Source of the DNA: a virus
DNA length: 52,269 nt
Strand: one strand, 5' to 3'
IMG/VR virus record: IMGVR_UViG_3300048076_000002
Span: 1-52,269 of that record
Each line of letters starts with the position of its first letter. The stretch's first letter is position 1. The position numbers and the translations under genes are program-made. The notes under the pieces were generated by a model that worked only from the letters and a program-made list of their open reading frames with translations, did no database searches and was not told the origin of the DNA. Shown here in pieces: positions 5,560 through 48,407 of this stretch.

Positions 5560-5592
5560 AAGTCACCTGACAATTTCTGAGATAGAGAGTTA

Positions 5593-5844
5593 TCAACTCA
5601 AGTCCCCGGCACATAAACCAGCACCACAAGTGCATGGATCACACGTCGGGCACACGTCGTGACCGTGGTCACACTCGATCGCTATAGGCAATTCGATTGC
5701 TCGCCGAAACTTACAGCCTTCTTTGTGATTTCTCCTCACACCGCAACAGCAAGGGCACTGGTGACACACCTTACAAAACACAGACTCCGGCGAAGGGTTG
5801 ATAACAAAGGCATCAAGTCGAGGCGGCGTCACTGGTTGGTTCAT
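5593..5844 (-). CDS. Cys-rich small protein (13 Cys in 83 aa)
   Basis: FCKVCHQCPCCCG...GCKF...ECDHGHDVCPTCDPCTCGAGLC. Overlaps the 3' end of the radical SAM gene by 32 nt in another frame. Confidence 0.5.
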   Translation of the reverse strand: MNQPVTPPRLDAFVINPSPESVFCKVCHQCPCCCGVRRNHKEGCKFRRAIELPIAIECDHGHDVCPTCDPCTCGAGLCAGDLS

Positions 5845-6850
5845 CGCGATATTCCTTTGAAATTCTATGCGGTCTTAAGTCGGTCGAAAGCAAGTAGTCA
5901 ATCACTCGACGGCTGGCGTTACGCTTTGACACAACGTCTGGCTCAGACTGATTCATGTCATCCGGCGTTAATATGTTAAGCGTGTGCCCTATCTTCGGCT
6001 TCAAGTGACTGTAAGATCCATCGTCAACAACAGTGGTTCTGTCGTCAGTATGAGCTAAATCACCTTTACCTCGTAAAGGCACAAGGCAACGCTGGCAATG
6101 ATAGGCTACCTGATTGCGAAACGGCTCGACTTGCATTGGAGCTTTCCACCATCCCGGCGTAACGACCATGCCAGTATCCGGGTAGCTTGGATCAAACTGA
6201 TTGATCATCGCCTGACCGCCAGCAACCTCACAAAAGAATCCCCGAAGCTCATCACGGAACTGACAGATCATTGCTGACCAATGCTTATTGATATCACACT
6301 CTGATATCAGCTTCCATCGATCTGAAGCGTCGGGAACTTGCAACGCTAAGTCGCCGTGTACAGGCGAGTGTAAGCTGTCGCGGTCATGCCCAAACGGTCT
6401 TGACTCTGGCCAGAAATCCTTGAATTTATGGTACGCTTCCACACTCATATGACAATTCAGATTGGAGTGTGCTGGACTGAATGTCTCTCGCATTGCACGG
6501 GCATTGCTCATACTGACTGGATTGTTTGACCAGACACCACATTTCTCTTTAGGGAAGTAATTTCTGAGGATAGCACATATGTCGATGAACTTGGGGTGCA
6601 TCGCTGGATTGCCGCCGAAGATTCCGATAAGCCCGAAGTAACCTTCCATTGACTGACAGGCAAGCTCGAAATTCTCCAGCGTGATGTATGAGGCACGCCC
6701 GGCGAATTGTGATCCTTGCGTACAGTTGCTGCACGCCAAGTCACAGGCACGAGTCAAATGTATTTGCATGACGCCATCCATGCCACCACATTTGCCGGGA
6801 CGGCGTTGACCGGGAGGAACCATTACGCTGAGTGCTTCGTCGATGTTCAT
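5813..6850 (-). CDS. radical SAM enzyme
   Basis: HLTRACDLACSNCTQ contains the CX3CX2C cluster motif. GIFGGNPAMHP resembles the GGEP motif. Confidence 0.75.
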   Translation of the reverse strand: MNIDEALSVMVPPGQRRPGKCGGMDGVMQIHLTRACDLACSNCTQGSQFAGRASYITLENFELACQSMEGYFGLIGIFGGNPAMHPKFIDICAILRNYFPKEKCGVWSNNPVSMSNARAMRETFSPAHSNLNCHMSVEAYHKFKDFWPESRPFGHDRDSLHSPVHGDLALQVPDASDRWKLISECDINKHWSAMICQFRDELRGFFCEVAGGQAMINQFDPSYPDTGMVVTPGWWKAPMQVEPFRNQVAYHCQRCLVPLRGKGDLAHTDDRTTVVDDGSYSHLKPKIGHTLNILTPDDMNQSEPDVVSKRNASRRVIDYLLSTDLRPHRISKEYRDEPTSDAAST

Positions 6851-6875
6851 GTTAACGATCCTGACTGAGAGTGAG

Positions 6876-6885
6876 TGACAGTAAT
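6876..6885 (+). repeat. TGACAGTAAT(CA) motif copy
   Basis: Intergenic. It lies 6 nt after the stop of 6892..7197 and 26 nt before the radical SAM ATG. Confidence 0.9.
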
Positions 6886-6891
6886 CAAATG

Positions 6892-7197
6892 TTAGGATTG
6901 CGTTTCAAGCAAGTGTGCATCTCGAAGACCTCTGGCGTATCCTTGCTCTTCTGCTCGCCTTATGTCTTTTCCACGGCTTGATTGCAACGCACGAATCTCA
7001 CGGTGTAACTCTGTATCATCTTCTCGATACAGTCGTAATCTTTCTTCCAGGTCACGGAGTTCCCTTTCGACATACTGACAAGCTGGTTTTGAGTGCGTGT
7101 ACGGACCAAAGTGATCTGCTGCACTTTGAGTGTCTTCAAATAATTCATCACAGTGAAAGCACTTCCACGGACCTTGACGTTGTGATTCTTCTGTCAT
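6892..7197 (-). CDS. zinc-finger/coiled-coil protein
   Basis: WKCFHCDELFEDTQSAADHF is C2H2-like and is followed by a charged heptad-like segment. Confidence 0.55.
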   Translation of the reverse strand: MTEESQRQGPWKCFHCDELFEDTQSAADHFGPYTHSKPACQYVERELRDLEERLRLYREDDTELHREIRALQSSRGKDIRRAEEQGYARGLRDAHLLETQS

Positions 7198-8294: not shown

Positions 8295-8335
8295 GGATGA
8301 GCCTGACGAAAACTTCTGAGATATTAGTACAGCCA

Positions 8336-8503: not shown

Positions 8504-10059
8504 ATTATTGGTCCTGAATGAGGAAGTGATCTGTACACGTTGTAGCACTCACCGGGGAATGATTTCGCATGAGCGTACCGCGTATCGCTTTCATTACTAT
8601 TCCAGGGATTACCCATCGAAGACTCAATCCCGACATGTTGAGTTAATGAAGGGTTATGAATGAATTCTGACACACTACACTCAGCCAGAGCTCCCAGTAC
8701 AGCACCGTCTAAAGCAACATTCCCTAACTGAGCATCATGACGGCGAGTGATAAATCTCCGGCTCGACAACAGCATTTCCACAACATGATGCCGGAACACT
8801 AAAGCTATAGCACCCCGACCGCGTTGATAACCACTCTTACCTCTGTATGCTTCCATCCATCCCGGCTGACGATCATGGATGATCTCTTCGTTTTCCATAA
8901 ATGTCAATAGATTGATATATGAATTTTGAGGAATTTGAGAAAATAATATGTAGTCTTTCAGTCCCTTCACGCAACGAATATCGTCCTGAAAGACAGCGTA
9001 ATACTCACTCCAGGGGTCAGCTGAATACATGTCCAGTAGTGTGCGATGCCAGTGAAATACAGTTCCCATTCGCGGGTACTGCTTAACTACAGCGAGTACC
9101 TGTTGCAACTTATCGTCATTCAACCTGACCGTGCAACTCTGATCATCTGACGCAAAACTGTGCCGAGACTTGATGCTCACATCAGGAACTAAATCACGAA
9201 AGCATTCCCATGACGACATAAGCGAACTGTCGCTAGCGTTCTGCTGTGGACTGTTTGACCGGCTGAACAGGCTATCCCGATCCAAGTATCCATCCACGTA
9301 CAATGTTATCTTGTTAAACCCACCAGCAGCCAATGACAGTAATGAGGATTTAGTGTAAAATGGATTGTTTGCCCGATCCGGTATCGTTGTCATACCACAA
9401 GTCCAAGTGCCGGGGATGAAAGGCATCTGATTCTTTGGATTTGAATCCCCGCCGTTCCATTCATGCACAAGCTGTTTGAGCCTGTCAAAATGACCCAACG
9501 TATCAATAACACGACGGTGGCACAGATGATTAGCGTGATAACCGTACACTACGCCAGGGATACCAAGCTCGCTTATCTTCCGCTTGAATGCTGCTAACGT
9601 GCCGTCGTGGATACTGCCGACGAGTACACGCTCTGGCGGCACAGGCGGCTTAATATCTGCTTTCTGACCACCACTCAACCAGTTATTCACCCATTCACCA
9701 ACAGCGTTAATTTTCTTCTGTCTTTCTTCACAGTTGCAGGGAGCACCCAGCCATCTGGAGTAGCGTTCCTTAGTGATGCCAAAGAATTCCAATCCTTTGG
9801 CAATCTTATCCCCCCAACCGTCCGGCTCATGAATCACCGTATTGTACGAGGTCTCTTCCAAGTCAATACCTGTGAACTCGCTGTATAACTTCCTGGCCAG
9901 CGTTACTTGACTTGACTGACATTGCAGTCGTCGTGTACCGTCAGCCGACATACTGCCGAAGTATAGTTCAAACCGGCCATCAACGAACCTGGCGAACTCT
10001 GCCCGCTGATCTTCTGCAATTTTACCTAGTGGTACGCGGTCGTTTGCTACGGCAGACAT
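8500..10059 (-). CDS. two-domain glycosyltransferase-like protein (paralog of 10123..11079)
   Basis: The C-terminal half shares the blocks TTIPDR, FQDDIRCV, NLLTFMENEE, ALVF and HNPSLTQHVGIESSMGNPW with the next gene. Confidence 0.55.
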   Translation of the reverse strand: MSAVANDRVPLGKIAEDQRAEFARFVDGRFELYFGSMSADGTRRLQCQSSQVTLARKLYSEFTGIDLEETSYNTVIHEPDGWGDKIAKGLEFFGITKERYSRWLGAPCNCEERQKKINAVGEWVNNWLSGGQKADIKPPVPPERVLVGSIHDGTLAAFKRKISELGIPGVVYGYHANHLCHRRVIDTLGHFDRLKQLVHEWNGGDSNPKNQMPFIPGTWTCGMTTIPDRANNPFYTKSSLLSLAAGGFNKITLYVDGYLDRDSLFSRSNSPQQNASDSSLMSSWECFRDLVPDVSIKSRHSFASDDQSCTVRLNDDKLQQVLAVVKQYPRMGTVFHWHRTLLDMYSADPWSEYYAVFQDDIRCVKGLKDYILFSQIPQNSYINLLTFMENEEIIHDRQPGWMEAYRGKSGYQRGRGAIALVFRHHVVEMLLSSRRFITRRHDAQLGNVALDGAVLGALAECSVSEFIHNPSLTQHVGIESSMGNPWNSNESDTRYAHAKSFPGECYNVYRSLPHSGPII

Positions 10060-10122
10060 AGAGCACCTGACTGAGAGTTAAGCAACACCCGACGACAACT
10101 TCTGAGATAGGAATATATTGCG

Positions 10123-13327: not shown

Positions 13328-13366
13328 GACATGCCTGACAATTTCTGAGAATGAAGTACAGTACGA

Positions 13367-14494: not shown

Positions 14495-16936
14495 TTACGG
14501 TACTACTCGGATAACACCGCCGTTAGCAATAGCATCCCTGATTCCCTGTAGCTCTAATTTCAGTTCAGTTAACTGACGGTTTGGCTTATCATTCCGCTGC
14601 TCGTTAACTTGCTGAAAGGCGTCTGCCTGAGCTTGAAAAGCATTTTGAACCAGAGCACCGTTAAACGGTACGGCTGCATCTTTCTGATCAAGAATATCCT
14701 GCTCAACTCGTGCCTGATTTGCCTTCAGGAATTCCATGTTCATTAGCTGATCAGCACCTAACTGAATCATTCCAGCAGCCCCAAGCATACCAGCAGCCAG
14801 CATACCATCACCCATCAACTGCTGCTGTTGCTTCTGTATCTCCAGCAACGCTTTCTGCCCTTCAGTTGCCTTAGCTTGAAACAGCAAATCTTCTTTCTGC
14901 TGATTTATCTTATCGAACAAGACACGCTGCTCCAGGGCTGCGTTAGCAGCTTCCTGCTCTTTCAGCTTAGCTCGCTTCTCTTCTAATACTATCATCTGAT
15001 TAAGCAATTGTAACCGCTCTTGATCCTGCTTCGATAGTTCTTCACCCGTGCCTGTCAGTGTCTCTCTGATCTCTCTAAGACCTTCAAGATTACCTACCTG
15101 TGTCCAGTCTCCCATCGTGCCCGACGCGAACATATCTTCCAACGTATTTAGTGCTGTTAGGTCATTGTACCATTCATCACTCTGGAATAGAGAACCTGCA
15201 TTCAGGATCTCATACATTTCACGCAACCCGGCAATAGCGTTTTCAGCATTGCCCAAGCGAGCATTATCACGGATGCTCGCCATCAATGCTTCCAGCCGCA
15301 CAGCCGCCTGTACCTCATCTTCAGTACCGTGAACTTTAGTTGCCGCGATTTGTTTCTCAAGCTCGATGACGGAGTTCATTCCACCTAATTGATTCTGTAA
15401 GAATGCTTCGGCTTCGATGTTCGCTTTACGTTGAGCATCTGCAATCTCACGATCTTTTAATGCTTGAGCATTTTTCAGGCTGAATATCTCCTGATCAGCT
15501 TCTTTAACAGAGTCAATGCCGCGTAAGCGTGATGCAAACTGCTGATCACCTTGCATGATGTCACGAGCAATGTCAAACGACTTGAGTCCATGCGTAGCAT
15601 CCTCAAGAGCTTCTGAGAGTGAACGTACATCTTTAGCAGCCGACTTCGCCCACGACCAGGCGGCTACTAAACCAATAGCAGCCACAGGCAGGCCGATAGA
15701 CAAACGTAGGGTAGTCATTAAGCCGTCGTTGAGAATCCCTGATTCTCTGCCAGCTTGAGCCAGGCCGCGAACAACCATTGTCAAGTTGTTGGACGCACCA
15801 AGTAACGCACTGCGTACGTCACCAAACGCCATGCCCTGTATAAAGTCTTCAGCGGCGAATGATGCTTGTGCAAACACACCAGTCATCGCAGCAGCAGCAC
15901 CGTTTTGCTGTTGCATCGCTCTGGTGTTAGCGATGAGTGCTTGCTGTTGACGGATAGTCTGTATTGTCAGATTGGTTGTTGCCCTGGCGGCTTGCTGATC
16001 ACTCAGCATCGTCATATTCGTCTGACGATTTAATCTGTATCGCAGTTCAGTGATACGCTGAATTTGAGCAGCATATCGCTCTTGCAACGTCATGTTACGC
16101 TGAAGAATTGCATTAGCTTCTTGCTGGTCAGCATTATCCTGCCTCGTAGCCGCGTCGTATCCGGCTTGTTGCTGACGCATTCGGTTACGGTTAAAGTCAG
16201 TGTCCTGCTGGTTAATGTAAGGATCACCATACCGCATTCTGTACGAGGATTGATTGGAACGATAACGATCCAACACAGCCATCGCGTCAGCATGTTCTCG
16301 GGCCGCAATCTCTTCCAGACGATAACTTTGTTTAAGATCCTGATAGGCACGCTCACGTTTAGCTTCGGTCGTGTCTTGCTGACGGCGTTCCGCTTGAGCA
16401 CGGACACGAGCAATCTCTCGCATGTTATCCGCGTTCATACGACCTTCACGCTCCTGACGACGCAGATCATCTTTGTACGCAATGAAGTCTGATGCCCGAC
16501 TTGCATCTAACTGCTCAGCGGCACGCTCCTGATTCATTAGTCGGATACGAGCAATCTCCTGCATATTCTGCAAATTGATCGTAGACTGCCGTTCGAGTTC
16601 AGCAAAGTAATCTCTGAGACGGTTATAGTCATCTGACGAATCTGCCGCAACGGGCGGATTCAATGACTGCTGCATTTCTCTAATGCGGTTTATTTCACTG
16701 GTATTGCTCGTATCCCACGACTTCATCTTCTCGCTAATGCTGTACGACGCCATACCTTCAATCAATAACCGCTGAGCATTTATCTCCCTCATCTGCTCAG
16801 AACCAGCTTCTGACATGCCCTTCGTGAGTTCACGCTTCCAGTCTTTGACGGCACGAGTGATTCGACGCATACCAGTTTCTACTCCGGTAGCGTCGATTCC
16901 CATTCGCATTGCGATGTCATTGATGCTATCGCCCAC
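14495..16936 (-). CDS. tail tape measure protein
   Basis: 813 aa, Q/E/R-rich and coiled-coil-like, with a central hydrophobic stretch LSIGLPVAAIGLVAAWSWA. It follows the G/GT chaperone pair. Confidence 0.8.
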   Translation of the reverse strand: MGDSINDIAMRMGIDATGVETGMRRITRAVKDWKRELTKGMSEAGSEQMREINAQRLLIEGMASYSISEKMKSWDTSNTSEINRIREMQQSLNPPVAADSSDDYNRLRDYFAELERQSTINLQNMQEIARIRLMNQERAAEQLDASRASDFIAYKDDLRRQEREGRMNADNMREIARVRAQAERRQQDTTEAKRERAYQDLKQSYRLEEIAAREHADAMAVLDRYRSNQSSYRMRYGDPYINQQDTDFNRNRMRQQQAGYDAATRQDNADQQEANAILQRNMTLQERYAAQIQRITELRYRLNRQTNMTMLSDQQAARATTNLTIQTIRQQQALIANTRAMQQQNGAAAAMTGVFAQASFAAEDFIQGMAFGDVRSALLGASNNLTMVVRGLAQAGRESGILNDGLMTTLRLSIGLPVAAIGLVAAWSWAKSAAKDVRSLSEALEDATHGLKSFDIARDIMQGDQQFASRLRGIDSVKEADQEIFSLKNAQALKDREIADAQRKANIEAEAFLQNQLGGMNSVIELEKQIAATKVHGTEDEVQAAVRLEALMASIRDNARLGNAENAIAGLREMYEILNAGSLFQSDEWYNDLTALNTLEDMFASGTMGDWTQVGNLEGLREIRETLTGTGEELSKQDQERLQLLNQMIVLEEKRAKLKEQEAANAALEQRVLFDKINQQKEDLLFQAKATEGQKALLEIQKQQQQLMGDGMLAAGMLGAAGMIQLGADQLMNMEFLKANQARVEQDILDQKDAAVPFNGALVQNAFQAQADAFQQVNEQRNDKPNRQLTELKLELQGIRDAIANGGVIRVVP

Positions 16937-17746: not shown

Positions 17747-17842
17747 ATCACTGACTTTCTGAGAGTTGCTTTCGTACTGACGTTACTCAAATCACAAAAT
17801 CTGATTCCCGTCAATACTTTCTGAGAGTTAAAGATATTAAAG

Positions 17843-19565: not shown

Positions 19566-19799
19566 ACATCCAGCACCCAACAAAACTTCTGAAGATAGAA
19601 CATACAGCAATCAATCTGACGTGTGAACTTGCGAAAATAATCCGCACTGTCGCTCCTATGGCTGAGCAGCTACGAATGCATCCTGTGACTTCTCACAGAG
19701 TTAAGTCGCCTGGAATCTTCAGTTTCTCCATAAGCTCCACGATCTTGGTATTCACAGCTACTGAGCTTTTGCTTGACCGCAGATTGATTGCTGTACATC

Positions 19800-21778: not shown

Positions 21779-22010
21779 TCCTTGAAAATTTCTGAGGTAA
21801 GAATCAACGCGGCGGTCTAAATGATAGTGCCAGCATGAGATAGTGAAAATGGTGTGAGCGGGACTCGTGTTAGGTAAAGGTGTGAAGAAAACCTAATTTA
21901 AGTCCCACTCACATTTCGCAGTCAGACGACAGTAATGAGAAAAGTGAGAGTAAGACAGCTTTAGAGTGTGAATAGAAAAATGTCTGCATTCTCACTTACA
22001 CGCATCAAGT

Positions 22011-23958: not shown

Positions 23959-23998
23959 AAGTCACCTGAGAGTTTCTGAGTTAGAAGGTAATGATGGA

Positions 23999-24721: not shown

Positions 24722-26765
24722 TTGAAAGCTCCATTGGAAAGTTCTGAGAGGAAAGCCATACAGACACAAGGTTAGTGATGGCGTCAACAGGTTTGCCGTC
24801 ATTCACAGACGGATCAGCGTTAAACTGAGAGTTATTGGTTGCGGATGATGTGGTGATCAGGCCGCACCAGGGTGTCAATTGAGAGTTAAGCATGTGAGCG
24901 AACTTACCACCCGGAGCATAGAACTCATCTACTGCTCGCTTCATGTTCAAAGCATGAACAGCATCGGCAAGCGGTCTGTTATTGACGACTCTTGATGTGC
25001 GTTTCTGTTCAAGCACGCGAGTCTCGTATTCTCGAAGACCGTTAATCACATTGCCAAAAGCTGCCCGCATTTTCTTTTCGTTATCAGCTATCCGCTCAGA
25101 ATGCTTCTTACGCTCAACTTCAGTCTCAGCGTTAACATTTTGCTCACGCCAGGCATTAAAGAATCTGGTTGCCAGGTTACGGATACGCTTATCGAGATGC
25201 TTGTTAGACGGAGCTTGATTCATCTTGCCTGACGGCGGTTTAGACTGAGCAGCAGCGGCTTTATCGGCCACTGCCTTGTGTTCTTCGGCAGACACCATTC
25301 CGTCAAGTGTCTGCTGAGATTGTTGAATGTTTTTCTCAGCCTGTTCGATGCCTTTCTCGGCAGCCTCATTTGCAAGCTCAGCACCTTTCTCAAGGTGCAG
25401 TGAGTGCTCGACGGTCATTAGATTGACCGGAACGTAACGAGGATTTGCAGCAGCATCGCCGGGATTAAACCCAAGACCTAAAACTGCTCGCAATTCTGTG
25501 CGATCAAATGTGCCAATTTCGAACAGCTTACGCAATGAGTCCGCCATCTTATCCAAAACACAGCGGTACAGATAGATCGTCTCGTACTCGAATGCGTAGA
25601 GCATGTGCGACGGTAACGGAAGTATCTCAGTCCGGAATTGGCTACAAATACGAGCGATGAATGGGCCTAAGCCTGTCTGAATAAACAAAGCAATTGCATC
25701 CGACAAGTCAACATCACCGGCATCTGTACCCATGTACGAATGCAGTAACGCTGGCGGGATATTGAAAGCACGAGCTATATCCTCAACACTGAATGCCCGT
25801 GACTCGATGAACTGAAGATGCTGGAATGGCAGACCGACTGTTACAGGCTTTAGATTCTGCTCCAGAATGCGAGACTTAAAGATATCGTCCAACGGAGCTT
25901 CAGGATCTGTCTCAAATAGTTTCTCCATTCGAGCCAGCACGTCAGGTGCAAGCCGATGCTCAGTAGAAAGGAATATCTGCGTAGAAATCCCTTTCTCGTA
26001 GAACGCAATACCACACTTCTCGGCTGCTCGATACATTCTCATCGAGTTCTGACCGTTGAAGATAAATCCTTCACCACAGTGAAACTGTGCGTTAAGCACC
26101 TTGCCGCGAAAGTGAACAACCATATCCTTAGGCAATACCATATGCTGATGTTTATCATCGCGAGTCGTATCGCCTGTATCAATGTAATACAGCAACTGAC
26201 CTTGCTCAGCTTTCAAGCCGTTACTCATCTGCTCCCCGCCTTGAGCTTTGCGGATATTACCTCTCGAAACTCTGGACGGATGGATATAATACAGGCGTCC
26301 TGTACGTCCCATACCGTCAAATTCTCGCATGAAGTAGCAATTACCGTCCATCAGTACGTCAAAGATTATGAGCATGAATGCATCATCTGACTGTAGCTCC
26401 GGATGAAAGTAATGCGAGAATAAGCGTGATGCTGGATGATCGGTTGTGAGAACGATCTTTGTCTTTGCTTGTGTGCCTGACTCGACAGCGTACATCTTAC
26501 GCGGACATATCATCATCATGCCGGTGTAAATATCAATAGCACATCGGACAGCAGCGAGTTTAAGGGAGTTGCTTGCCTGTGACGAATTCAACTGCTCAGA
26601 GTTAATAATACCGTACACGTCAGTCCAGGTCAGAGCACCGGCATTATGCACAGCACCTGGCGTAACAGCTTTCGACGACGAAACAGCGTTGATCACAGAC
26701 AGCATCGCATTACGTGATTCTGCTGCCGACGTGTAACCAAGTTTAGCCATGATCCGGTCGAACAT
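24696..26765 (-). CDS. portal protein (HK97 family) with long C-terminal extension
   Basis: SLKLAAVRCAIDIYTGMMMICPRKMY and the overall N-terminal ~450 aa fit a portal. Positioned between TerL and the protease. Confidence 0.8.
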   Translation of the reverse strand: MFDRIMAKLGYTSAAESRNAMLSVINAVSSSKAVTPGAVHNAGALTWTDVYGIINSEQLNSSQASNSLKLAAVRCAIDIYTGMMMICPRKMYAVESGTQAKTKIVLTTDHPASRLFSHYFHPELQSDDAFMLIIFDVLMDGNCYFMREFDGMGRTGRLYYIHPSRVSRGNIRKAQGGEQMSNGLKAEQGQLLYYIDTGDTTRDDKHQHMVLPKDMVVHFRGKVLNAQFHCGEGFIFNGQNSMRMYRAAEKCGIAFYEKGISTQIFLSTEHRLAPDVLARMEKLFETDPEAPLDDIFKSRILEQNLKPVTVGLPFQHLQFIESRAFSVEDIARAFNIPPALLHSYMGTDAGDVDLSDAIALFIQTGLGPFIARICSQFRTEILPLPSHMLYAFEYETIYLYRCVLDKMADSLRKLFEIGTFDRTELRAVLGLGFNPGDAAANPRYVPVNLMTVEHSLHLEKGAELANEAAEKGIEQAEKNIQQSQQTLDGMVSAEEHKAVADKAAAAQSKPPSGKMNQAPSNKHLDKRIRNLATRFFNAWREQNVNAETEVERKKHSERIADNEKKMRAAFGNVINGLREYETRVLEQKRTSRVVNNRPLADAVHALNMKRAVDEFYAPGGKFAHMLNSQLTPWCGLITTSSATNNSQFNADPSVNDGKPVDAITNLVSVWLSSQNFPMELSNAIVRPEQ

Positions 26766-28713
26766 CCTTCAGACCCCTTATCTCAGTAATCGTTTCCATT
26801 TCCGGATACATCCAGGCACCAATTGCCATCATTACAGCTACGATGCCATCGATCTTATGTGCCGATTTTCCTTTATCAGGCCGCTGCTTACCGTCACGAC
26901 TCAAACTAATTACGACATTGTTGGCCATCCACTCAAATACAGGACCGCCGCCGTGAAACAGCATGTGGTCTAACGCCAGTGATTCAATCTTTTTACACGG
27001 CTCATTCATCCCCGCGAAACTCTGAGGATACACCCGGCAAGGATAACCGTACTCTTTCAGAGTTTTATAAACATGATGAGCATTCCAATTATCAAATACG
27101 ACCTCACGACAATTTCTGAAGTAAGTAAGCAGGCCAGGATACTCTGACGTGCCGACTATTGCGTCCAGTACAGCACTCTCATCAACACTGTCTTTCTCGG
27201 TTGCATTGATCAGCCCGGCCTGATACCACATGTCGTACGGCAGTCCCTGCTCATGTGACCTTTCATATATCGATTTAGCAGGACACCACCCAAGATGCAG
27301 TATAACACACTGTCGCGGAAACCACAAGCCAATTGAAGCAATGTCATTGACAGATGCATTGTCGTACGCCAGGTAGCATTCTTCGTCTTTCAATGTCTGA
27401 CAAGTGTGGATGAACCACGTCCAATACCGTCCCCATTTCTGAATGTAAAGATCAACGGCTTTGGATATCTCGAACTTAGGGTCTGAGACGATTGTGAACC
27501 AATTAGGATGCTCAGCCATCCATTCTTTAATCTGCGGCACTGTCAGCAGTGTGAGTGACTCGTCAGCGTTGCCGTGTCTCCAGACGTGTGGCGGTATCCA
27601 GGACGTTTCTGTACGGGTCTTGATGTTGAAGTGAAGTCGCAGCAGTCGGTTTAACTCAACCGGATTATTAGTTGCGTTGCGGACCAGGTTTTCAAAGTAG
27701 TCTTCATTGACGGATACTCCGAAGCATGGATTAGTCCGCTTCCACACTTCAGGATCGGTGTAATCGTCTTCCAGAGTTGCTTCGTATATCACCGGCAAGT
27801 AAGTTGGCTCAAGCTGTTTACCTGTGGCAATCGATTCTGCTTTGTCTCTCATATTGTTGCACGGCGACAGTCGGTCGTAATCTGCCGTCGTCGTGTACAC
27901 TGTCAGCGGTTGTGCTCGTGCTCCTGTGCCCGTCAGTAACACGTCAAGTAATTCGCTGTTTGGGTGAGCGTGTACTTCGTCGGCGTAAATGAATGACGGC
28001 GATAGACCGTGCTTTGTGTCAGCGATGCTCGATAGCACTTTGAATACTGCACCGTCAATATGCTCGAATGATCTCGTTGACCGATGCACACGACACTGAC
28101 GAAGTTTATTAAGAAGCCGTGGATTTGTCTCCAGCATGTAAATGGTATGACGGAAGTTCAGGGATGCTTGTTCAATGTCAGCAGCAGCGGCATACAACTG
28201 ACCGCGTTTTTCTGTATCGCAGTAGAACATGTACAAAGTCAGGATCGACCCGAACGCTACAGTCTTGCCGTTTTTTCGCGGGACGTAAATGAAGCATTCA
28301 CGATACCGGCGACGGTTATTAGTCTCTCTCTTCCAACAGAACAGATTCGCGTAAACAGCACACTGCCAAAGCTCAGGAACGAATGGCTTGCCCGTCAAAA
28401 CACCTTCAGGAAAGCAGCACTCATTGAGAACAAACGAAATGAATCGACTCCATTCTGCCGTATCGAAGTAGTAACCTTCTGCCGTCAGGAATGGATCATA
28501 GATCGGGTTGTACCGCAGCAAATCAACAATTGAGACAGCTTCAAACTGGTAGCCGACCATTGAGCCACGGTCGTAAATTGGTCGTGGCACTTCCAAAGTC
28601 TTCGGACCTCTGATGTAGTCCGATTCCTTTATGAGTGTCTTACCAAGTTGTGGTTGTGGCTTTTCCGGTGTCCATAGCATAGGAGTACACGGCAGCTTGA
28701 CGTTCGCAGTCAA
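26743..28713 (-). CDS. terL: terminase large subunit
   Basis: Walker A-like VPRKNGKT, Walker B IYADEVHAH and a C-terminal nuclease-like half. The start may be TTG 28713 or ATG 28680. Confidence 0.9.
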   Translation of the reverse strand: MTANVKLPCTPMLWTPEKPQPQLGKTLIKESDYIRGPKTLEVPRPIYDRGSMVGYQFEAVSIVDLLRYNPIYDPFLTAEGYYFDTAEWSRFISFVLNECCFPEGVLTGKPFVPELWQCAVYANLFCWKRETNNRRRYRECFIYVPRKNGKTVAFGSILTLYMFYCDTEKRGQLYAAAADIEQASLNFRHTIYMLETNPRLLNKLRQCRVHRSTRSFEHIDGAVFKVLSSIADTKHGLSPSFIYADEVHAHPNSELLDVLLTGTGARAQPLTVYTTTADYDRLSPCNNMRDKAESIATGKQLEPTYLPVIYEATLEDDYTDPEVWKRTNPCFGVSVNEDYFENLVRNATNNPVELNRLLRLHFNIKTRTETSWIPPHVWRHGNADESLTLLTVPQIKEWMAEHPNWFTIVSDPKFEISKAVDLYIQKWGRYWTWFIHTCQTLKDEECYLAYDNASVNDIASIGLWFPRQCVILHLGWCPAKSIYERSHEQGLPYDMWYQAGLINATEKDSVDESAVLDAIVGTSEYPGLLTYFRNCREVVFDNWNAHHVYKTLKEYGYPCRVYPQSFAGMNEPCKKIESLALDHMLFHGGGPVFEWMANNVVISLSRDGKQRPDKGKSAHKIDGIVAVMMAIGAWMYPEMETITEIRGLKDVRPDHG

Positions 28714-28819: not shown

Positions 28820-29623
28820 TTAGAACACAAATGAAATCTCTTCGGAATGGAAGCTCTTTACACTCGTTCCCGGTCCACTCCAGGACAATGTCAGGATGCC
28901 GCAGTACCGATATTGGGCGAGTCCCTTTGAAGTTTCTGAGGCAGAAATCTGTATGCGAGCGTACGGTGTGCCTGCTGGCGTTGCCGATCCGGCTGGATTG
29001 ACGATCGTTGCTGTGCCGGATATGACGCGAGCAGGATCTGTCTCGTTAATACGCCGTATCACAAACGTTGCTGCCGCGTCATCTATGTCGCGAGTCCCAA
29101 CTACCTCTAACGGATTACCGGCAGTGTCAACCAGCGGCACTTCAATATCCTGACCGTCAGATTGCTGGTAGGAGTCGCCAATCACAAGCTGTGATGGGAA
29201 CCCAACCAAGCTGCCAGGAGTCAGCACAGCACCAGCAAACAGACTGGTAATGCTTCCCGCCGAACCAATCTTGTCCGTCTTAGGAGCGATCCGATCCTCA
29301 AGTATATCCAGTACCGCTTGCGACGTAGCTTGCTCTGCATCGCCGTAACCGGGGTACAAATCAAGCACTAACGTTCCACCAACAGCCAGCCAGCCGGTAC
29401 GCCTGATATTGGTTCTGCTTTCTGCTGCTCCTACATAGGCAGCCACGGATGAAATCTCTGCAACGGCTTCAGCGACAGTAGCCTTAAACATTCCTGTCGT
29501 ACCGTCTTCAACCAATGCGTCACCGCCAGCGTTGAGCAATGTAGCGTCGGATACAGCACGGATAAAAACAAACAAACCTGTGATTCCGGACAGTTCCGGC
29601 ATGTGCCAACGAATAATAGCCAT
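28820..29623 (-). CDS. hypothetical virion-associated protein
   Basis: Start moved to ATG 29623 (MAIIRW...), preceded by GGAAG. It follows the collagen-like fibre gene. Confidence 0.5.
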   Translation of the reverse strand: MAIIRWHMPELSGITGLFVFIRAVSDATLLNAGGDALVEDGTTGMFKATVAEAVAEISSVAAYVGAAESRTNIRRTGWLAVGGTLVLDLYPGYGDAEQATSQAVLDILEDRIAPKTDKIGSAGSITSLFAGAVLTPGSLVGFPSQLVIGDSYQQSDGQDIEVPLVDTAGNPLEVVGTRDIDDAAATFVIRRINETDPARVISGTATIVNPAGSATPAGTPYARIQISASETSKGLAQYRYCGILTLSWSGPGTSVKSFHSEEISFVF

Positions 29624-30588: not shown

Positions 30589-30722
30589 TGTCCTTTTCAG
30601 TTTGACGACGGAGTGTACCAGTCAACAACGATGGCACAACAAATTTCTGAGGTAGAAAAGTATGGCGGATTTTGGGTGTTTTGATTACAGCGATTACGCC
30701 GTAAAGACAGCTTGCAGCGTGG

Positions 30723-31367: not shown

Positions 31368-31717
31368 TAGCGTGATACTCCTAACCAGATGAAAACAGAA
31401 CTCAGCACTATCCCGGCAATAGCCCACACTTTAGCACCGGCTATCCCTAAGTCAACTCCATTGAGTAGAGACTTTAGGGCGAAAAATGTAACAGCAAGTG
31501 ACAGCAGGATACCAATTATCAGCAGTGCTGCCATCAGCATCACACCGTATCGCCCTCGAAAGTCAGCTTGAAACTGCATATTCTTTGGGTTGAATTTCAG
31601 CGACTGTGTATCTTTTACGTCTTGCTTACCCTGTACTTCGTCGCTGTCGGCATCTGTATTTGAGTCTTTTGATTCGACTTTCTGAGAAGTCTGTTTTTCC
31701 TGCTTCCGCAATGCCAT
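31367..31717 (-). CDS. membrane protein (holin candidate)
   Basis: Start moved to ATG 31717 (MALRKQEK...). Charged N-terminus followed by two TM segments (VMLMAALLIIGILLSLAVTFFAL and VWAIAGIVLSSVFIWLGV). Confidence 0.5.
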   Translation of the reverse strand: MALRKQEKQTSQKVESKDSNTDADSDEVQGKQDVKDTQSLKFNPKNMQFQADFRGRYGVMLMAALLIIGILLSLAVTFFALKSLLNGVDLGIAGAKVWAIAGIVLSSVFIWLGVSR

Positions 31718-32569: not shown

Positions 32570-32619
32570 TTAGATCTCTTAGCGGGTAATAGCCGCGTAA
32601 CACTTCTGAGGAATGAAAT

Positions 32620-33439: not shown

Positions 33440-33459
33440 CAATTTCTGAGGAAGAAACA

Positions 33460-34115: not shown

Positions 34116-34700
34116 CTACGACCGAAAGTAAGTAATACCTCTCATACCTTCCGGTCGATCATCTTCGAACCGCTCACCAGCAACAGGGATTGATCCTTCA
34201 GGGGCAATAATGAATACAATGTCCCTGGGGGTCATTCCCAGTTTCTCCATCAGCTTCAACTGAATCGTCTGCTGTGTATTCAGGATCTTCAGCCAGGGAC
34301 TCGGACTGACACCAACCAGATACTTGTTGCCGTCCCTGTCAGTATCATAGATCATGATGAGTTCTCCATTACCATCATCACTCTCTCTTGCTGCTTTATC
34401 GATCTCCTGGCGGCACTTGTGCATCAAACAAGTTACCTCGACCAGTTCTGAGATGAGAATAGCATACGAGGGACTTAATACTCTACGCTTCTCAAAATCG
34501 GCCAGGATGAATGTCCAGAGTTGCATCATTTGCTTGTCTCTGGCTATCCGTTCAGGGATTGGAATCTGACTGATTGTACACGTACCGTCAGCAGTTTCAA
34601 TCTCTTTCTCCGGCCCAATGAGCTTGAAATACATCGGCTTACGCTGAATTTTGCGTCTTGGCTTCGTCAATTTGGGTTTGGTTGATTTAGGTGGTGCCAT
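34116..34700 (-). CDS. terS: terminase small subunit (P27-family-like)
   Basis: Start moved to ATG 34700 (MAPPKSTKPK...), preceded by CTCTCAGGAG. QLWTFILADFEKRRVLSPSYAILISELVEVTCLMHKCRQEI and LMEKLGMTPRD fit the P27 TerS pattern. Confidence 0.6.
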   Translation of the reverse strand: MAPPKSTKPKLTKPRRKIQRKPMYFKLIGPEKEIETADGTCTISQIPIPERIARDKQMMQLWTFILADFEKRRVLSPSYAILISELVEVTCLMHKCRQEIDKAARESDDGNGELIMIYDTDRDGNKYLVGVSPSPWLKILNTQQTIQLKLMEKLGMTPRDIVFIIAPEGSIPVAGERFEDDRPEGMRGITYFRS

Positions 34701-37849: not shown

Positions 37850-37886
37850 CAGTCACACAACAATTCTGAGATAAGGAATAACACCA

Positions 37887-38374: not shown

Positions 38375-38795
38375 CATCAGAATCGCGATACTGAACACAA
38401 GTACAGTGAAAATTGACCATGCTTGCAAATACGTCAGGATTGGCCTAGAATCGATTGTTTTGAAAAACGGCTAGGGTCCCTCGTATTTTCCGGAACAATC
38501 GATTTTAGGTGTACCCTGAGTGACGTAGTGAAGTATTTTGATGAACTCATCCGGTGAGTTGTCAGCGTAGGCTATCGGCAGTCTGTCGGCAGCGCTTTTG
38601 CCCTATTCATAGGCCAGTTTATACAGGTGAACAAATGTCACTGCTGCTGATCTGCCGTACACTATGAACGATACGACGGACAAACGAACACCAGTTGGGG
38701 TGTCTGAACACCATCACAGAATCTGACGAAGAACGAGCAGCAAGAGAACTTCTGAAGTAGAAGTACATTGAAAGTGAGGTGTCAGTGTGAGTGCA

Positions 38796-39645: not shown

Positions 39646-39668
39646 TGGATGAGTGCAGCCGAATAACG

Positions 39669-42581: not shown

Positions 42582-42681
42582 GTTAAACTCCTGCTCACAA
42601 AATAGAACTATCGACTAAACCACCAGAGACCAGTTCTCCAGCGTTAACACACGACGAAATTTCTGAGGATGAAGTATACAC

Positions 42682-44520: not shown

Positions 44521-44542
44521 TGAACTAACCTTATCCGTCAGG

Positions 44543-44552
44543 TGACAGTAAT
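44543..44552 (+). repeat. TGACAGTAAT motif copy
   Basis: It lies 5 nt after the stop of 44558..44824 and 23 nt before helicase ATG 44520. Confidence 0.9.
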
Positions 44553-44557
44553 AAAAA

Positions 44558-44824: not shown

Positions 44825-45578
44825 TAACCGAGTTATACCAATCCCGTAAATCGAATCCCGATGGAATTTCTGAGTGTGAAGGTACAGTCACTTGACTCCA
44901 ATCCAAAGCATGTAAGCTGTTTACAGCGTGCCCTGATTGTTTAATCCGGCGAGCTACCGAAAGCACGCCTTGATGACCTGCATCGTCGTTATCAAACAAT
45001 AGCACGACACTCTTGCCGTCGAGCAGATGCAGCCAGGATGATGCAAAACCAGAGCCAGCAGTGCCGAGCAGGTCAGGAGCATCATTAACGCCTTTCAACA
45101 TCTGACGCCCGATGAGATAGTCAGCATGACCTTCAGCCACCCAAACTTCCTCACTCTTAGTCAGATGTTGCATACCCAGGATTGAGCAGTTCCACGGTTT
45201 TGGCGATGCGTACGCAATGCTCGCTTCGAGACTGTACTTATGTAACGCGATGATGTGTCCTTTCTGATTCATGACCGGAAACCAGAAATACGTGCCGTCG
45301 AACTTAATACCCTCATCCTTCAATGTACGTGGCTGTACGCCTTTTTTGACAGACGTGTATATCCTGGCTTGTTCAGGAGTCAAGGCAGGCAGATCCTCGA
45401 ACCATTGTCGCATGAATGATATTGCGTTGCCGGTCTGCTTACACCGCCAGCACTGAAAGACATTCCCTTCCTCTTTTGACATGGAGAGTTTATCTTCAGC
45501 CGAGCACCACAAGCATGTCAGCCGGTAGTCTTCAGTCTCTTCGCAGAATGGGTACTCAAGATGTTCAAGTAGCTTCAT
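44817..45578 (-). CDS. DNA primase (zinc finger + Toprim)
   Basis: CLWCSAEDK...FQCWRCKQTGNAISF zinc motif. Toprim motifs VWVAEGHADY and VLLFDNDDAGHQG. Confidence 0.75.
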   Translation of the reverse strand: MKLLEHLEYPFCEETEDYRLTCLWCSAEDKLSMSKEEGNVFQCWRCKQTGNAISFMRQWFEDLPALTPEQARIYTSVKKGVQPRTLKDEGIKFDGTYFWFPVMNQKGHIIALHKYSLEASIAYASPKPWNCSILGMQHLTKSEEVWVAEGHADYLIGRQMLKGVNDAPDLLGTAGSGFASSWLHLLDGKSVVLLFDNDDAGHQGVLSVARRIKQSGHAVNSLHALDWSQVTVPSHSEIPSGFDLRDWYNSVSA

Positions 45579-45896: not shown

Positions 45897-46121
45897 TCAA
45901 AAGCCGCCACTGACAGGATTCAAAACAGGAGCAGACATAGAGGCAGGCACAATAGTTTCGAGCTTACTGACTCCGGATGCCACCATCTGATACTGGCGTA
46001 ATGCCTGACGCAGCACCTGATAAGCGTCAAGATTCTGATCGGATGCCAGTTGCTCAATTACCTGGATTTCTTCTTCCGTGAATCCAAGTGACGTAAGCAT
46101 GTGATAAGTTGCAACGTTCAT
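45897..46121 (-). CDS. hypothetical protein (74 aa)
   Basis: Co-oriented ORF. No family recognised. Confidence 0.5.
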   Translation of the reverse strand: MNVATYHMLTSLGFTEEEIQVIEQLASDQNLDAYQVLRQALRQYQMVASGVSKLETIVPASMSAPVLNPVSGGF

Positions 46122-46164
46122 AAATCAGCTTCCTTGTTAAGTTCTGAAATAGAAGTAATACCGT

Positions 46165-46371
46165 TCACGGTTTTCGCACAGCAACCGCATCAACATTCGT
46201 ACCAACATAAACATAATGCTGAGACTCTTCATCGTAAAAACGGTAGACGTACCTTCCCATCTCGTTCTGATACACAAGTGTAGCTGTTGGTACAGGCTCG
46301 TCTACTTTTATCACACTTTTTGATGAGCATCCACATACAAACATAAGCACGCACATAGTAATGAATTTCAT
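46165..46371 (-). CDS. small lipoprotein
   Basis: Start at ATG 46371 (MKFITMCVLMFVCGCSSKS) with a lipobox-like VCGC. AAAGGTG lies upstream. Confidence 0.5.
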   Translation of the reverse strand: MKFITMCVLMFVCGCSSKSVIKVDEPVPTATLVYQNEMGRYVYRFYDEESQHYVYVGTNVDAVAVRKP

Positions 46372-46382
46372 GATCACACCTT

Positions 46383-48368
46383 TCACGCTAGTATAATCTT
46401 TGTTTCCTGATCCCAGCGATGCTTGATCAGCGTCATATCAACAGGAGCGTATACGCCTAACTCGCTCGCTGCCTGCTCCATCAATCCCTTGATCTCACGT
46501 ACATGACGTTTAGGAATTCTCTCTCTGACTTCGGTATCCAATTCGTCATGTACTTGTAGTACGATCCGTCCTTCCGGGTACTCATTAACCAGGTAGTCAT
46601 CGACGTACCGCATAGCACGTTTGACGATGACTCCCTCTGATCCCTGCACAATAAAACATACTCCAGCATGAGCAGCTTTCTCCCATTGACCTGTCCACCT
46701 GTTAAACTGGTCACGTACTTCTAGAGGATAGCCATCCAGAGTCTGTACATTCCCGTGTATTGCGATCTGTTCCTTAGTGTGCAGGATGTACTCGTGAGCA
46801 TTCGGGAAGAGTTGCACAACAACATCCCACAAGCCTGGTTGTCCAGCGGTCTTCTCGATCCTTTTGGGTGTCGCACCAAAAATGAACCCGAAATTGACGT
46901 TTTTAGCAACACGCCTTTGGGATTTAGTAGGTACAGCCGAGTCCGACAATCTGAAAATACGACGGGCAGTGTAATCGTGTGCATCCCAACCTCTTGCGAA
47001 GGCATCAATCATTCCTTTCTCGCCAGTTACTACGGCAAATATGCGTAGTTGTAGCTGTGAGTAGTCACCAGATAACCACCACCACCCTGGTGGCGGTCCA
47101 AAACATGAACGCATCATTGGAGATGCTTCAAGCCATTTAGCAATATCATCGGCGTCATCCTCAAATGGATTTCCTGCCTTAGATACTTGCTGCATTCCCG
47201 GATTACGCATCGCAACACGAGTCGTTGCTGTCCCAGTTGAGTTTATGTCTGGATGCAAGTAACCAAGTTTATTACGGCTGTTGTTGTATAGGTTCAGCGA
47301 CTGAAGTTTCTTCTGGTATTTCTTCAGACTAAGGAAGCATCCTAGAAACTGATACTCCCTCGAATTTTCTTCAACAGTCTCATGGAGCTTCAGGAACGTA
47401 TTAGCATCAACTGACGGCTTCTTTTCTTTCTTCGTGTAGCTGACAGGGTCAAGCTGCCACGTCTCAAATAGTAAATCCCGCACACTATCGTCAGTGAGTT
47501 TATCCACTCCGGATAGCTCGAAACATTTCTGAGTGAGAATGTTGATGTAATGGTCACACGCATTCTTACAGTCTTGCAATTCTGGTATGTTGACCCATAT
47601 ACCACGAGTTTCCATTTTCCAGAGTACGTGGTCTATTGAGCGGTTGATATTCAACAGCCTTTCAAGATCGTCGCCGTGAGTGTGCAGCAGGGCAGCAAAG
47701 AAATGTTCGGCTAGCTCATATGTGTTTACGCAGTCGGCTTTCAGATAACGATTCAGTACACCTTCCAGCATCGAGTCAGGAATCTTAGGCCGGAATGCTT
47801 GCGGAATGGCAGCCAGTACAGCATCCGGCAGCCAGTAGTCCATGCGTCCCCACGATGAGCCTTTACGGTTAGATGCAAATGATTCATGATCTCCGTCGTC
47901 TTCGGCAATGATCCAATCACCGTACTGAGCTTTGAATCGCTTTGACCGAACAAGAGCACGGCACTTATTAACCGCCGTCATTAGATCGTCTTCAGACTCG
48001 TACCCCCGATCAAGATACTCTTTGGTCAGCGAGTCCAGGCTCATCTTGTCAATCGAGCAGTTCAAATGAGCAAGCTGCGATATATCGATGATTCGCTTCC
48101 AGAACTCCGGGGAATCAGGTTCACGCCAGTCAATAAGCTCAGCCTCACACAGAGCTTTAACGTCAAACTTAGCGTTATGAGCAATGAGCATGTCAGCGTC
48201 ATTAAACGCCTTGCAGATTGCAGGATTAAATTTTCCTATCCGACTACGAGTCAACGGGTTAACCTGAAGCTGTTGAGACGAGTAGCTACCGTTGTACATC
48301 CCGATTGCAAACGTCGTGCAACCGTTCTGTAGCTTGATGCCAGTCGTTTCAGTATCGAATGAAAGCAT
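46383..48368 (-). CDS. family A DNA polymerase with 3'-5' exonuclease domain
   Basis: Exo I FDTETTG and Exo II HNAKFD. Polymerase motif A SGDYSQLQLRI, motif B RRVAKNVNFGFIFG and motif C LQVHDELD. Confidence 0.9.
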   Translation of the reverse strand: MLSFDTETTGIKLQNGCTTFAIGMYNGSYSSQQLQVNPLTRSRIGKFNPAICKAFNDADMLIAHNAKFDVKALCEAELIDWREPDSPEFWKRIIDISQLAHLNCSIDKMSLDSLTKEYLDRGYESEDDLMTAVNKCRALVRSKRFKAQYGDWIIAEDDGDHESFASNRKGSSWGRMDYWLPDAVLAAIPQAFRPKIPDSMLEGVLNRYLKADCVNTYELAEHFFAALLHTHGDDLERLLNINRSIDHVLWKMETRGIWVNIPELQDCKNACDHYINILTQKCFELSGVDKLTDDSVRDLLFETWQLDPVSYTKKEKKPSVDANTFLKLHETVEENSREYQFLGCFLSLKKYQKKLQSLNLYNNSRNKLGYLHPDINSTGTATTRVAMRNPGMQQVSKAGNPFEDDADDIAKWLEASPMMRSCFGPPPGWWWLSGDYSQLQLRIFAVVTGEKGMIDAFARGWDAHDYTARRIFRLSDSAVPTKSQRRVAKNVNFGFIFGATPKRIEKTAGQPGLWDVVVQLFPNAHEYILHTKEQIAIHGNVQTLDGYPLEVRDQFNRWTGQWEKAAHAGVCFIVQGSEGVIVKRAMRYVDDYLVNEYPEGRIVLQVHDELDTEVRERIPKRHVREIKGLMEQAASELGVYAPVDMTLIKHRWDQETKIILA

Positions 48369-48407
48369 AACGCTAGTGCCGAGAGAGTTTCTGAGATAGA
48401 TGTACGA

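Follow-up and report, generated by a model that had tools for sequence, protein, structure and literature searches.

A recurrent one-strand motif in an uncultured phage genome

Here, we describe motif A, a ~28-base signal with the fixed core CTCAGAA that recurs about every 1.8 kb on a single strand of a tailed-phage genome. The genome, from a freshwater, uncultured phage family, is IMG/VR record IMGVR_UViG_3300048076_000002; its whole stretch of 52,269 nucleotides is called the window. Because the first 127 nt (1-127) recur identically at the end (52143-52269), the window represents a complete circular assembly of ~52,142 bp. The G+C content is 48%. Genes (Table 1) lie almost exclusively on the minus strand, the exception being a plus-strand block at ~32354-39645, in which the GC skew is flipped too. 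No near-identical DNA was found among GenBank phages, and no cultured phage has a large terminase more than 31% identical to that of the window. The 813-amino-acid protein specified by the largest open reading frame (ORF), which occupies the tape-measure position, has no match. Many small ORFs of the window are without any relatives, and neither Rfam families nor tRNAs were found in it.

Read on the minus strand, motif A consists of a pyrimidine run, CTCAGAA, A(T/C)T, ~6 nt, and (A)GG. Specifically, with the C of CTCAGAA taken as position 0, positions -7 to -1 are pyrimidine-rich, positions 0-6 are invariant, including A5, and A7, T8, T9, T11, and a G at 16/17 follow. T9 is present in 18 of 25 copies and G16 in 15 of 25. 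The GG at +15 to +18 is also retained in copies that lie within coding sequence and in copies from related phages.

The skew is pronounced. All 18 occurrences of the 8-mer TTTCTGAG are on the plus strand. Shuffled sequences lead one to expect 2.0 on both strands together, and a count of 18 was attained in 0 of 100 shuffles. TTCTGAG is present 25 times on the plus strand and 3 times on the minus strand (9.05 expected). A 30-nt position weight matrix (PWM) built from motif A copies yields 26 matches of at least 14 bits, every one of them to the minus strand. The PWM also finds TTCAGAA variants at 46148, 38756, 27120, and 19593, for a total of 29 copies (Table 1). The initial annotation of this DNA, which described an intercistronic leader in one genomic orientation, had listed 12 TTTCTGAG positions and reported the word absent from the other strand. 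All 12 are present, the absence is confirmed, and six further copies (1508, 2981, 6561, 31679, 44867, and 47526) had been missed. The five additional TTCTGAG sites it gave are real; to these we add 15611 and 34446. Comparison with shuffled sequence, proposed there as a means to disprove the element, finds it enriched.

Motif A copies form no consistent hairpin, and no Rfam family matches them. A model in which CCTC pairs with a downstream GAGG was rejected as a general description, as it suits only the copies at 1515 and 15617 and some from relatives. A literature search on CTCAGAAA returned only unrelated primer sequences.

Table 1. Coordinates of recognized genes and one-strand motifs in the window, and of convergent motif A pairs in related phages
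Feature	Position	Strand	PWM score (bits)	Context
Large terminase gene	26743-28713
Portal gene	24696-26765
Major capsid protein gene	22071-23630
Family A DNA polymerase gene	46383-48368	-
DnaG-like primase gene	44817-45578	-
Sak4-like annealase gene	50423-51487	-
Small terminase gene	34116-34766	-		within plus-strand block
Motif A core	51375..51381	-	21.4	within Sak4-like gene
Motif A core	48389..48395	-	24.6	27 nt ahead of DNA polymerase ATG 48368
Motif A core	47527..47533	-	20.3	within DNA polymerase gene
Motif A, TTCAGAA variant	46142..46148	-	18.0	27 nt ahead of ATG 46121
Motif A core	44868..44874	-	24.8	3' end of primase gene
Motif A core	42661..42667	-	25.2	non-coding, 86 nt ahead of ATG 42581
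Motif A, TTCAGAA variant	38750..38756	-	15.9	870-nt non-coding region of plus-strand block; 47 nt past a motif B copy
Motif A core	37864..37870	-	19.5	antisense, spacer ahead of plus-strand gene 37887
Motif A core	34446..34452	-	19.5	within minus-strand small terminase gene (peptide LLISELVEV)
Motif A core	33444..33450	-	27.5	antisense; element fills 20-nt spacer of two plus-strand genes
Motif A core	32604..32610	-	21.6	antisense to plus-strand gene 32620, edge of divergent region
Motif A, weak copy	31680..31686	-	13.3	within gene 31367-31747
Motif A core	30645..30651	-	23.1	non-coding, 63 nt ahead of ATG 30588
Motif A core	28934..28940	-	25.3	within gene 28820-29653 (SASETSKG), 227 nt ahead of large terminase start
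Motif A, weak TTCAGAA variant	27114..27120	-	13.2	within large terminase gene
Motif A core	24742..24748	-	21.1	last codons of portal gene, 27 nt ahead of ATG 24721
Motif A core	23974..23980	-	27.5	22 nt ahead of ATG 23958, 26 nt past motif B at 24006
Motif A core	21790..21796	-	28.8	past structured region downstream of capsid gene; 27 nt ahead of ATG 21769
Motif A, TTCAGAA variant	19587..19593	-	17.3	28 nt ahead of candidate start 19565
Motif A core	17819..17825	-	22.8	upstream member of tandem pair; 313-nt structured spacer past putative major tail protein gene
Motif A core	17757..17763	-	13.1	17 nt ahead of ATG 17746
Motif A core	15611..15617	-	20.6	within 813-aa putative tape-measure gene
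Motif A core	13343..13349	-	26.1	22 nt ahead of ATG 13327; element fills 39-nt spacer
Motif A core	10100..10106	-	26.3	47 nt ahead of ATG 10059
Motif A core	8314..8320	-	19.3	26 nt ahead of candidate ATG 8294
Motif A core	6562..6568	-	14.2	within radical-SAM-like gene
Motif A, best-scoring copy	5575..5581	-	29.6	22 nt ahead of ATG 5559 (CTCAGAAATTGTCAGGTGACTTATG)
Motif A core	2982..2988	-	17.7	within ParB/Srx-like gene 2417-4054
Motif A core	1509..1515	-	21.1	39 nt ahead of candidate ATG 1476 of PD-(D/E)XK-like gene
Motif B (T of TACTGTC)	49179, 44550, 38803, 38157, 37648, 36940, 36371, 29480	-
Motif B (T of TACTGTC)	28754, 24006, 22335, 21934, 21416, 20689, 20522, 17984	-
Motif B (T of TACTGTC)	14478, 13052, 11215, 10299, 9341, 6883, 2900, 1950	-
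Convergent motif A pair, L064	3092/3158
Convergent motif A pair, L096	1957/2023
Convergent motif A pair, L066	3267/3333
Convergent motif A pair, L071	349/406

Placement relative to genes

Although 83% of the genome is called coding, 18 of the 29 copies are non-coding (P = 7e-8); the remaining 11 are gene-internal. The earlier statement that all but two copies are intergenic thus holds for the list on which it was based and not for the full set. About 13 of the 29 lie no more than 90 nt upstream of a co-oriented start codon, with core-to-ATG distances of 17-86 nt. Ahead of ~10 co-oriented genes, the core precedes the ATG by 17-28 nt and the AGG of the element is the Shine-Dalgarno sequence, as in the cassette CTCAGAAATTGTCAGGTGACTTATG. 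A cassette, TCAGGTGACTTATG, is repeated at 5559, 23958, and 42906. The example first put forward, in which the element occupies the spacer at 13328-13366, is correct, as is the pair of ACTTTCTGAGAGTT copies 62 nt apart. Starts that had been relocated to 8294, 19565, and 24721 are plausible, each ATG lying 26-28 nt past a core. Separately, two genes share a shorter pre-start cassette, CTCTCAGTCAGG (10059-10079 and 6850-6872), 6-9 nt ahead of their ATG; its appearance is that of a shortened motif A joined to a Shine-Dalgarno sequence.

The two longest spacers follow the capsid gene (21779-22070) and the putative major tail protein gene (17747-18059). Both are far more structured than shuffled sequence (z = -6.5 and -7.5, respectively). 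In the latter, a GC-rich hairpin comes first, followed by a T-run that merges at 17984 into a copy of motif B, a second one-strand motif described below. The hairpin past the capsid gene is present in relatives too.

The plus-strand block harbors no sense copies of motif A. It contains four copies in the minus orientation (38756, 37870, 33450, and 32610) plus one within the minus-strand small terminase gene. At 33450, the complement of the pyrimidine run (GAGGAAG) is the Shine-Dalgarno sequence for plus-strand genes. The 11-mer CAATTTCTGAG, originally assigned to three plus-strand genes, is exact at 33460 only; 32620 has ACACTTCTGAG and 37887 has ACAATTCTGAG.

Conservation in relatives and selection on the DNA

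We gathered ~120 loci from uncultured relatives whose capsid and terminase proteins are 50-67% identical to those of the window. Terminase alignment was needed, as locus searches with single proteins (that of plus-strand gene 33460-34113, the small terminase, or the DNA polymerase) returned nothing or one locus. In the first 58 loci, the counts of CTCAGAA are 352 for the gene strand and 51 for the opposite strand, a skew due in part to the usual coding preference for words that contain CAGAA. PWM matches are strongly one-stranded in several lineages (10:1, 13:0, and 9:0), at ~1 per 2 kb, and nearly absent from others. Presence in relatives had been named beforehand as a test of the element, and motif A is found there, including in the orthologous spacer past the capsid gene in three lineages. 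The window copy at 21790..21796 has orthologous copies in lineages A and G. Lineage A also possesses CCCAGAA (CCCAGAAA, 10:1), again including that spacer, and the core of the L097 lineage is CTCAGTA (9:0). Skews of the word ATTACTT in relatives were set aside as coding coincidences, e.g., for the peptide YYF.

The copy inside the gene upstream of the large terminase is maintained in many relatives, within the peptide SSETxKG and 130-230 nt ahead of the terminase gene. In 25 of the 25 distinct relatives that have Ser-Glu at this site, the pair is spelled TCA GAA. Across the genome, 22% of Ser codons are TCA, and 27% of Ser-Glu codon pairs are TCAGAA. The preceding codons remain pyrimidine-rich even when the amino acids change, and flanking synonymous sites are free to vary. 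In the L097 group, the same copy reads TCA GTA ACT, so that SSET becomes SSVT, a Glu-to-Val change. The small terminase peptide LLISELVEV has its Ser-Glu encoded by TCA GAA in the window and in L061, L071, and L092, but by AGT GAG or TCT GAG in L078 and L080. Judged by these comparisons of sequence, motif A is a selected cis element whose nucleotides themselves are under selection, rather than a pure intercistronic leader.

Two further observations concern the relatives. Face-to-face motif A pairs ~55-65 nt apart occur within their early-region genes and are kept across four contigs (Table 1). An apparent inversion of the small terminase gene, considered as a natural experiment, was dropped because the 216-amino-acid minus-strand gene of the relatives is not its orthologue.

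A candidate phage-specific promoter

We tentatively favor the idea that motif A specifies where transcription starts, as a phage-specific promoter of the “extended -10 only” type. The notion is that it would drive leftward (middle/late) transcription and would be read by host RNA polymerase redirected by a small phage factor, as T4 gp55 does for TATAAATA. CTCA would stand in place of the extended -10, G4-A5-A6-A7-T8-T9 (GAAAtT) would meet the minimal -10 rule nAnnnT, and the conserved G16/G17, 7 nt past T9, would be the expected +1. If so, transcripts would start at the AGG that, in compact spacers, is also the Shine-Dalgarno sequence. That RNA polymerase reads motif A, that transcription starts at this point, and that the phage has a specificity factor are inferences; the motif itself, its strand bias, placement, and conservation, the selection at synonymous sites, and the lineage-dependent core variants are observed.

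Several features argue for a promoter. Start codons with a copy close upstream include those of the DNA polymerase gene, of the gene that follows the capsid gene, and of several genes for tail proteins. The capsid and tail spacers have a terminator-then-restart layout, in which a structured spacer is followed by motif A just ahead of the next gene. The conserved copy ahead of the large terminase gene is held at synonymous sites. Finally, lineage-specific cores (CTCAGAA, CCCAGAA, and CTCAGTA) are what would be expected from a co-evolving specificity factor.

T4 late promoters (TATAAATA) provide the closest comparison for such a start signal. They are recognized by gp55 and gp33 together with host RNA polymerase, and they possess an invariant core of ~8 bp at -10 and no -35. 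Dozens exist per genome, many of them in the coding sequence of the upstream gene, and transcription starts ~6-7 nt past the core. The T4 reader is a small, highly diverged sigma-like protein, liable to be missed by sequence searches. Motif A resembles them in its lack of a conserved -35, in its many copies, some of them gene-internal, and in a geometry that would place the core at -10 and the start point at the GG 7 nt past T9. It differs in that its core is unrelated and no gp55, gp33, or clamp homologue was recognized; it also has a pyrimidine-rich upstream flank and the GG, runs antisense through the early block, and is evenly spaced. Promoters of the T7/T3/SP6 class are, similarly, asymmetric elements of ~20-25 bp with 10-20 copies pointing one way, lineage-specific sequences, and a G-rich start. 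In this case, the differences are that Pfam, PHROGs, and NCBIfam reveal no RNA polymerase gene in the complete 52-kb genome, that the largest ORF occupies the tape-measure position, and that conservation outside the motif A heptamer is much weaker. The two large conserved proteins of unassigned family are MCM-like and ParB/Srx-like.

Host-type promoters do not account for motif A. In consensus scans, no sigma-70-like site coincides with motif A in its orientation, no -35 element is conserved at -20 to -15, and the -10 is only partial (GAAAtT). We rejected a sigma-70 promoter facing the other way (TGACAA, 17 nt, TAnnnT), as it suits only the copies at 5581, 10106, and 13349. Sigma-70-like sites occur at chance frequency overall, and good ones at 31976 and 32284 flank the divergent region. 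Thus, the plus-strand block could consist of host-transcribed early genes that need no motif A.

Other results weigh against a promoter. Copies are as dense in the plus-strand block as elsewhere in the genome. They are also spaced more evenly than chance would produce (coefficient of variation of the gaps 0.50, P = 0.0002); of 29 gaps, a single one falls below 700 nt, versus ~9 expected. In the relatives' opposite-strand blocks, well-scoring copies are mostly antisense, retaining their genomic orientation (L061 2397, 2993, and 5295; L071 2757 and 6013; L121 18317; L109 1926), with sense-oriented exceptions in the L064 3158 group and at L123 21162. Together, the window and independent relative sites give ~11 antisense copies (4 + ~7) versus 3-4 sense copies in such blocks. 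Site positions are often non-orthologous across lineages even as density stays similar, a turnover more in keeping with a DNA signal of the coverage type than with promoters of individual genes. Searches of ~50 proteins against Pfam, PHROGs, and NCBIfam found no RNA polymerase or sigma-like protein, and the predicted leader length is only ~8 nt. The antisense copies and even spacing, awkward for a promoter, could be explained if late leftward transcription has to traverse the early block on its way to the genes for the small terminase and structural proteins.

Alternatives to transcription initiation

The main alternative, in our estimate somewhat less likely than the promoter, is that motif A is a genome-polar DNA signal, read on one strand regardless of the direction of transcription, for example a site for a phage nicking system. 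Signals of a Chi-like or priming type, spaced along the lagging-strand template, would fall into this class as well. Localized single-strand interruptions exist in the packaged DNA of T5, tf/LUZ24-like, and phiKMV-like phages (PMC3517423). In phage tf, whose genome has two convergent transcription units, the 14 mapped nick sites share a single strand, and three of them lie at start codons (PMC3517423). Thus, one-strand motifs at gene junctions are a known feature of nick sites. The resemblance to motif A is that these sites are multi-copy, follow a one-strand consensus regardless of transcription, keep roughly conserved positions among relatives while the consensus drifts, and lie in some cases at gene starts (PMC3517423). 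They differ in their sequences (TACT/RTGMC, CGACN5CCTACTCCGG, and R/GCGCRGG), and motif A has copies that are more numerous, more even, and more often ahead of start codons.

A polar signal accounts for all 29 of 29 window copies lying on one strand, with their density unbroken through the plus-strand gene block, and for the genomic orientation retained in oppositely oriented genes of L061, L071, and L121. It also suits the even spacing with few short gaps, the turnover of positions among relatives at a maintained ~1 per 2 kb, and a drift of the lineage consensus that parallels tf versus LUZ24. However, no nickase was recognized in the genome, the nearest candidate being a weak Holliday-junction-resolvase-like match of gene 1565-2014. 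Relatives possess a few well-scoring copies on the other strand, including the convergent pairs ~60 nt apart, and their contig ends are not enriched for the motif (8 observed versus 9.0 expected). A second one-strand motif, TTACTGTCA, departs at a single base from TACTGTGAC, the nick consensus of tf; it matches that consensus more closely than motif A does and is the stronger candidate for a nick site. Moreover, a polar signal leaves unexplained the GG exactly one discriminator length past the -10-like hexamer. Regarding Chi itself, canonical GCTGGTGG and GNTGGTGG are not enriched, an apparent excess in L124 stems from glycine-codon repeats, and conservation of a 28-nt flank would be atypical for a Chi-like hotspot.

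More broadly, motif A, possibly together with TTACTGTCA, may constitute a genome-wide polarity code, a proposal that we rate about as likely as the polar signal. A co-evolving, phage-encoded machine would read this code from a single DNA strand, with no dependence on transcription. Candidate readers would be a nicking system, a replisome of primase and MCM-like helicase, or the ParB/Srx-like protein. Copies every ~2 kb would then organize replication, packaging, or replication-coupled late transcription, and either purine-rich face would be reused as a Shine-Dalgarno sequence, fitting the element into gene junctions.

That motif A is an mRNA leader element, namely a processing site or a translational enhancer/operator just upstream of the Shine-Dalgarno sequence, seems improbable. 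In its favor, ~10 copies lie 17-28 nt ahead of an ATG and run into the Shine-Dalgarno sequence, and the cassette TCAGGTGACTTATG recurs. The AGAAAUU within motif A presumably resembles an RNase E-type single-stranded A/U-rich site. However, 11 window copies and most of those in relatives are gene-internal with no start codon following, the core-to-start distance ranges from 17 to 86 nt, Rfam gives no match, and there is no consistent hairpin. Antisense copies also lie in and between oppositely oriented genes, and a leader would not be kept on the antisense strand. Thus, of the intercistronic leader originally proposed, what endures is an element that is real, strand-specific, enriched, mostly non-coding, and continuous with a Shine-Dalgarno sequence and start codon in ~10 spacers. 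Its definition by cistron boundaries or a role in translation is not supported, given the coding copies, the 17-86 nt distances, and the ~11:3-4 excess of antisense copies.

The start-associated sequence (SAS) of Cluster K mycobacteriophages is the known element that such a leader would most recall. SAS is asymmetric, exists in tens of copies nearly all in one orientation, overlaps the ribosome-binding site, and is conserved across subclusters; it lies 3-7 bp from the start codon of non-structural genes only and is essentially never gene-internal (PMC3203893). Motif A is likewise asymmetric, in one orientation, and overlapping the ribosome-binding site. Unlike SAS, it lies 17-86 nt from starts, is genome-wide, and has 11 coding and 4 antisense copies, and we do not classify it as an SAS.

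We consider it quite unlikely that motif A is the dispersed binding site of a phage DNA-binding regulator such as the ParB/Srx-like protein (2417-4054). Models for such an arrangement would be KorB, with its multiple operators on plasmid RK2, and the stoperators found in mycobacteriophage L5. The ParB/Srx-like protein, with its SGQHR motif, is conserved in all lineages examined, and the many asymmetric, mostly non-coding sites of the window resemble L5 stoperators. On the other hand, ParB/Srx fold matches are weak (E >= 0.14), motif A lacks the palindromic symmetry of ParB and KorB sites, and stoperators track the direction of transcription, which motif A mostly does not do in opposite-strand blocks. 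In particular, L5-type stoperators go with a temperate phage that encodes a repressor. Motif A is set apart from them by an orientation that is unflipped in the plus-strand block, and no repressor or integrase was found among the scanned proteins.

Finally, that motif A is a functionless by-product of codon usage or composition, CAGAA-containing words being rich on coding strands, is very improbable: CCAGAAA, TGCAGAA, and TCCAGAA are likewise strand-skewed in relatives and some CTCAGAA words there are coding coincidences (e.g., ATGGCTACTCAGAAG for MATQK), but the flanks are conserved over ~28 nt, antisense copies fill spacers between plus-strand genes, and the idea is effectively refuted by the non-coding copies (18 of 29 in the window) and the synonymous-site pattern (TCA GAA in 25 of 25 relatives, with neighboring codons varying, versus 27% genome-wide).

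Significance

As a phenomenon, motif A belongs to known kinds, either phage-specific promoters or one-strand phage motifs. New are its sequence, the phage family, and a genome-wide polarity that persists through an oppositely transcribed block; new as well are the use of the element as a Shine-Dalgarno sequence in either orientation and coding-embedded copies that co-vary with lineage cores. Motif A provides a concrete cis code for this phage family, with 29 sites and lineage variants, and the coding-embedded sites constrain codon choice and, in one lineage, protein sequence (Glu to Val). If it is a promoter, it would represent a new specificity class that implies an unrecognized sigma-like factor, as well as compact cassettes combining promoter and ribosome-binding site. 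If it is a one-strand DNA signal, it would extend strand-specific nicks and polarity motifs to a new family and supply comparative data on site maintenance. Either reading improves the calling of start codons and transcription-unit boundaries in these genomes.

A second one-strand motif

Motif B, (T)GATTACTGTCA, lies on the minus strand in both intergenic and coding DNA (Table 1), and its orientation is unchanged in the plus-strand block. TTACTGTC has 18 copies, every one of them on the minus strand (1.9 expected). It is this motif, as TTACTGTCA, that is one base off the mapped nick consensus TACTGTGAC of phage tf. Lineage variants exist: TACTGCCA is distributed 8:0 in L061/L021, and TTACTCCCA 12:2 in L092/L042. 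In four spacers, motif B is positioned 26-159 nt upstream of a motif A copy.

Candidate readers and other features of the genome

Three proteins are candidate readers of motif A; none is tied to it by the present data. First, gene 43141-44631 (minus strand), which adjoins the DnaG-like primase gene, encodes an MCM-like AAA+ helicase with a C-terminal winged helix. Its model has a predicted local distance difference test (pLDDT) score of 78 and matches MCM subunits in Foldseek (E = 6e-8), and some homologues (P0166 and P0168) are primase-helicase fusions. Second, gene 2417-4054 (minus strand) encodes the 545-amino-acid ParB/Srx-like protein, which carries invariant NxxNRP and SGQHR motifs and is found in every lineage examined. 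Its weak fold matches are to Noc, sulfiredoxin, KorB, ParB-N, and SspE. Third, gene 1565-2014, with its Holliday-junction-resolvase-like match (E = 2e-4), was the sole outcome of a gene-content comparison of motif-carrying versus motif-less lineages. It turned up in the motif-carrying ones only, an association not to be trusted because five genomes are too few. Its similarity to tf_47 is not significant (E = 0.033).

Between the tail and recombination genes lie, on the minus strand, a methyltransferase gene (Methyltransf_24; 4945-5559) and a gene for a radical-SAM-like protein (5813-6850). The same place in relatives (L121-L123, positions 1-4900) harbors epimerase/dehydratase, DegT aminotransferase, methyltransferase, and glycosyltransferase genes, and this region may be a variable modification cassette.

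Large terminase genes ~330 codons longer, or terminase matches spanning ~2.9 kb, occur in several relatives (L031 4393-7356, L034 4389-7376, L087/L014 605-3526, and L045/L092), which suggests inteins or other insertions. One relative, L126 (JBIKII010000380.1), is a 36.8-kb contig deposited inside a Lake Mendota metagenome-assembled genome labelled Caulobacter sp. This genus is the only host hint and a doubtful one, given the 48% G+C of the window.

Finally, a hairpin with a 17-bp stem at 39668-39709, between the convergent plus-strand block and replication module, is probably a bidirectional terminator, and a further strong terminator-like hairpin is present at 49091-49119.

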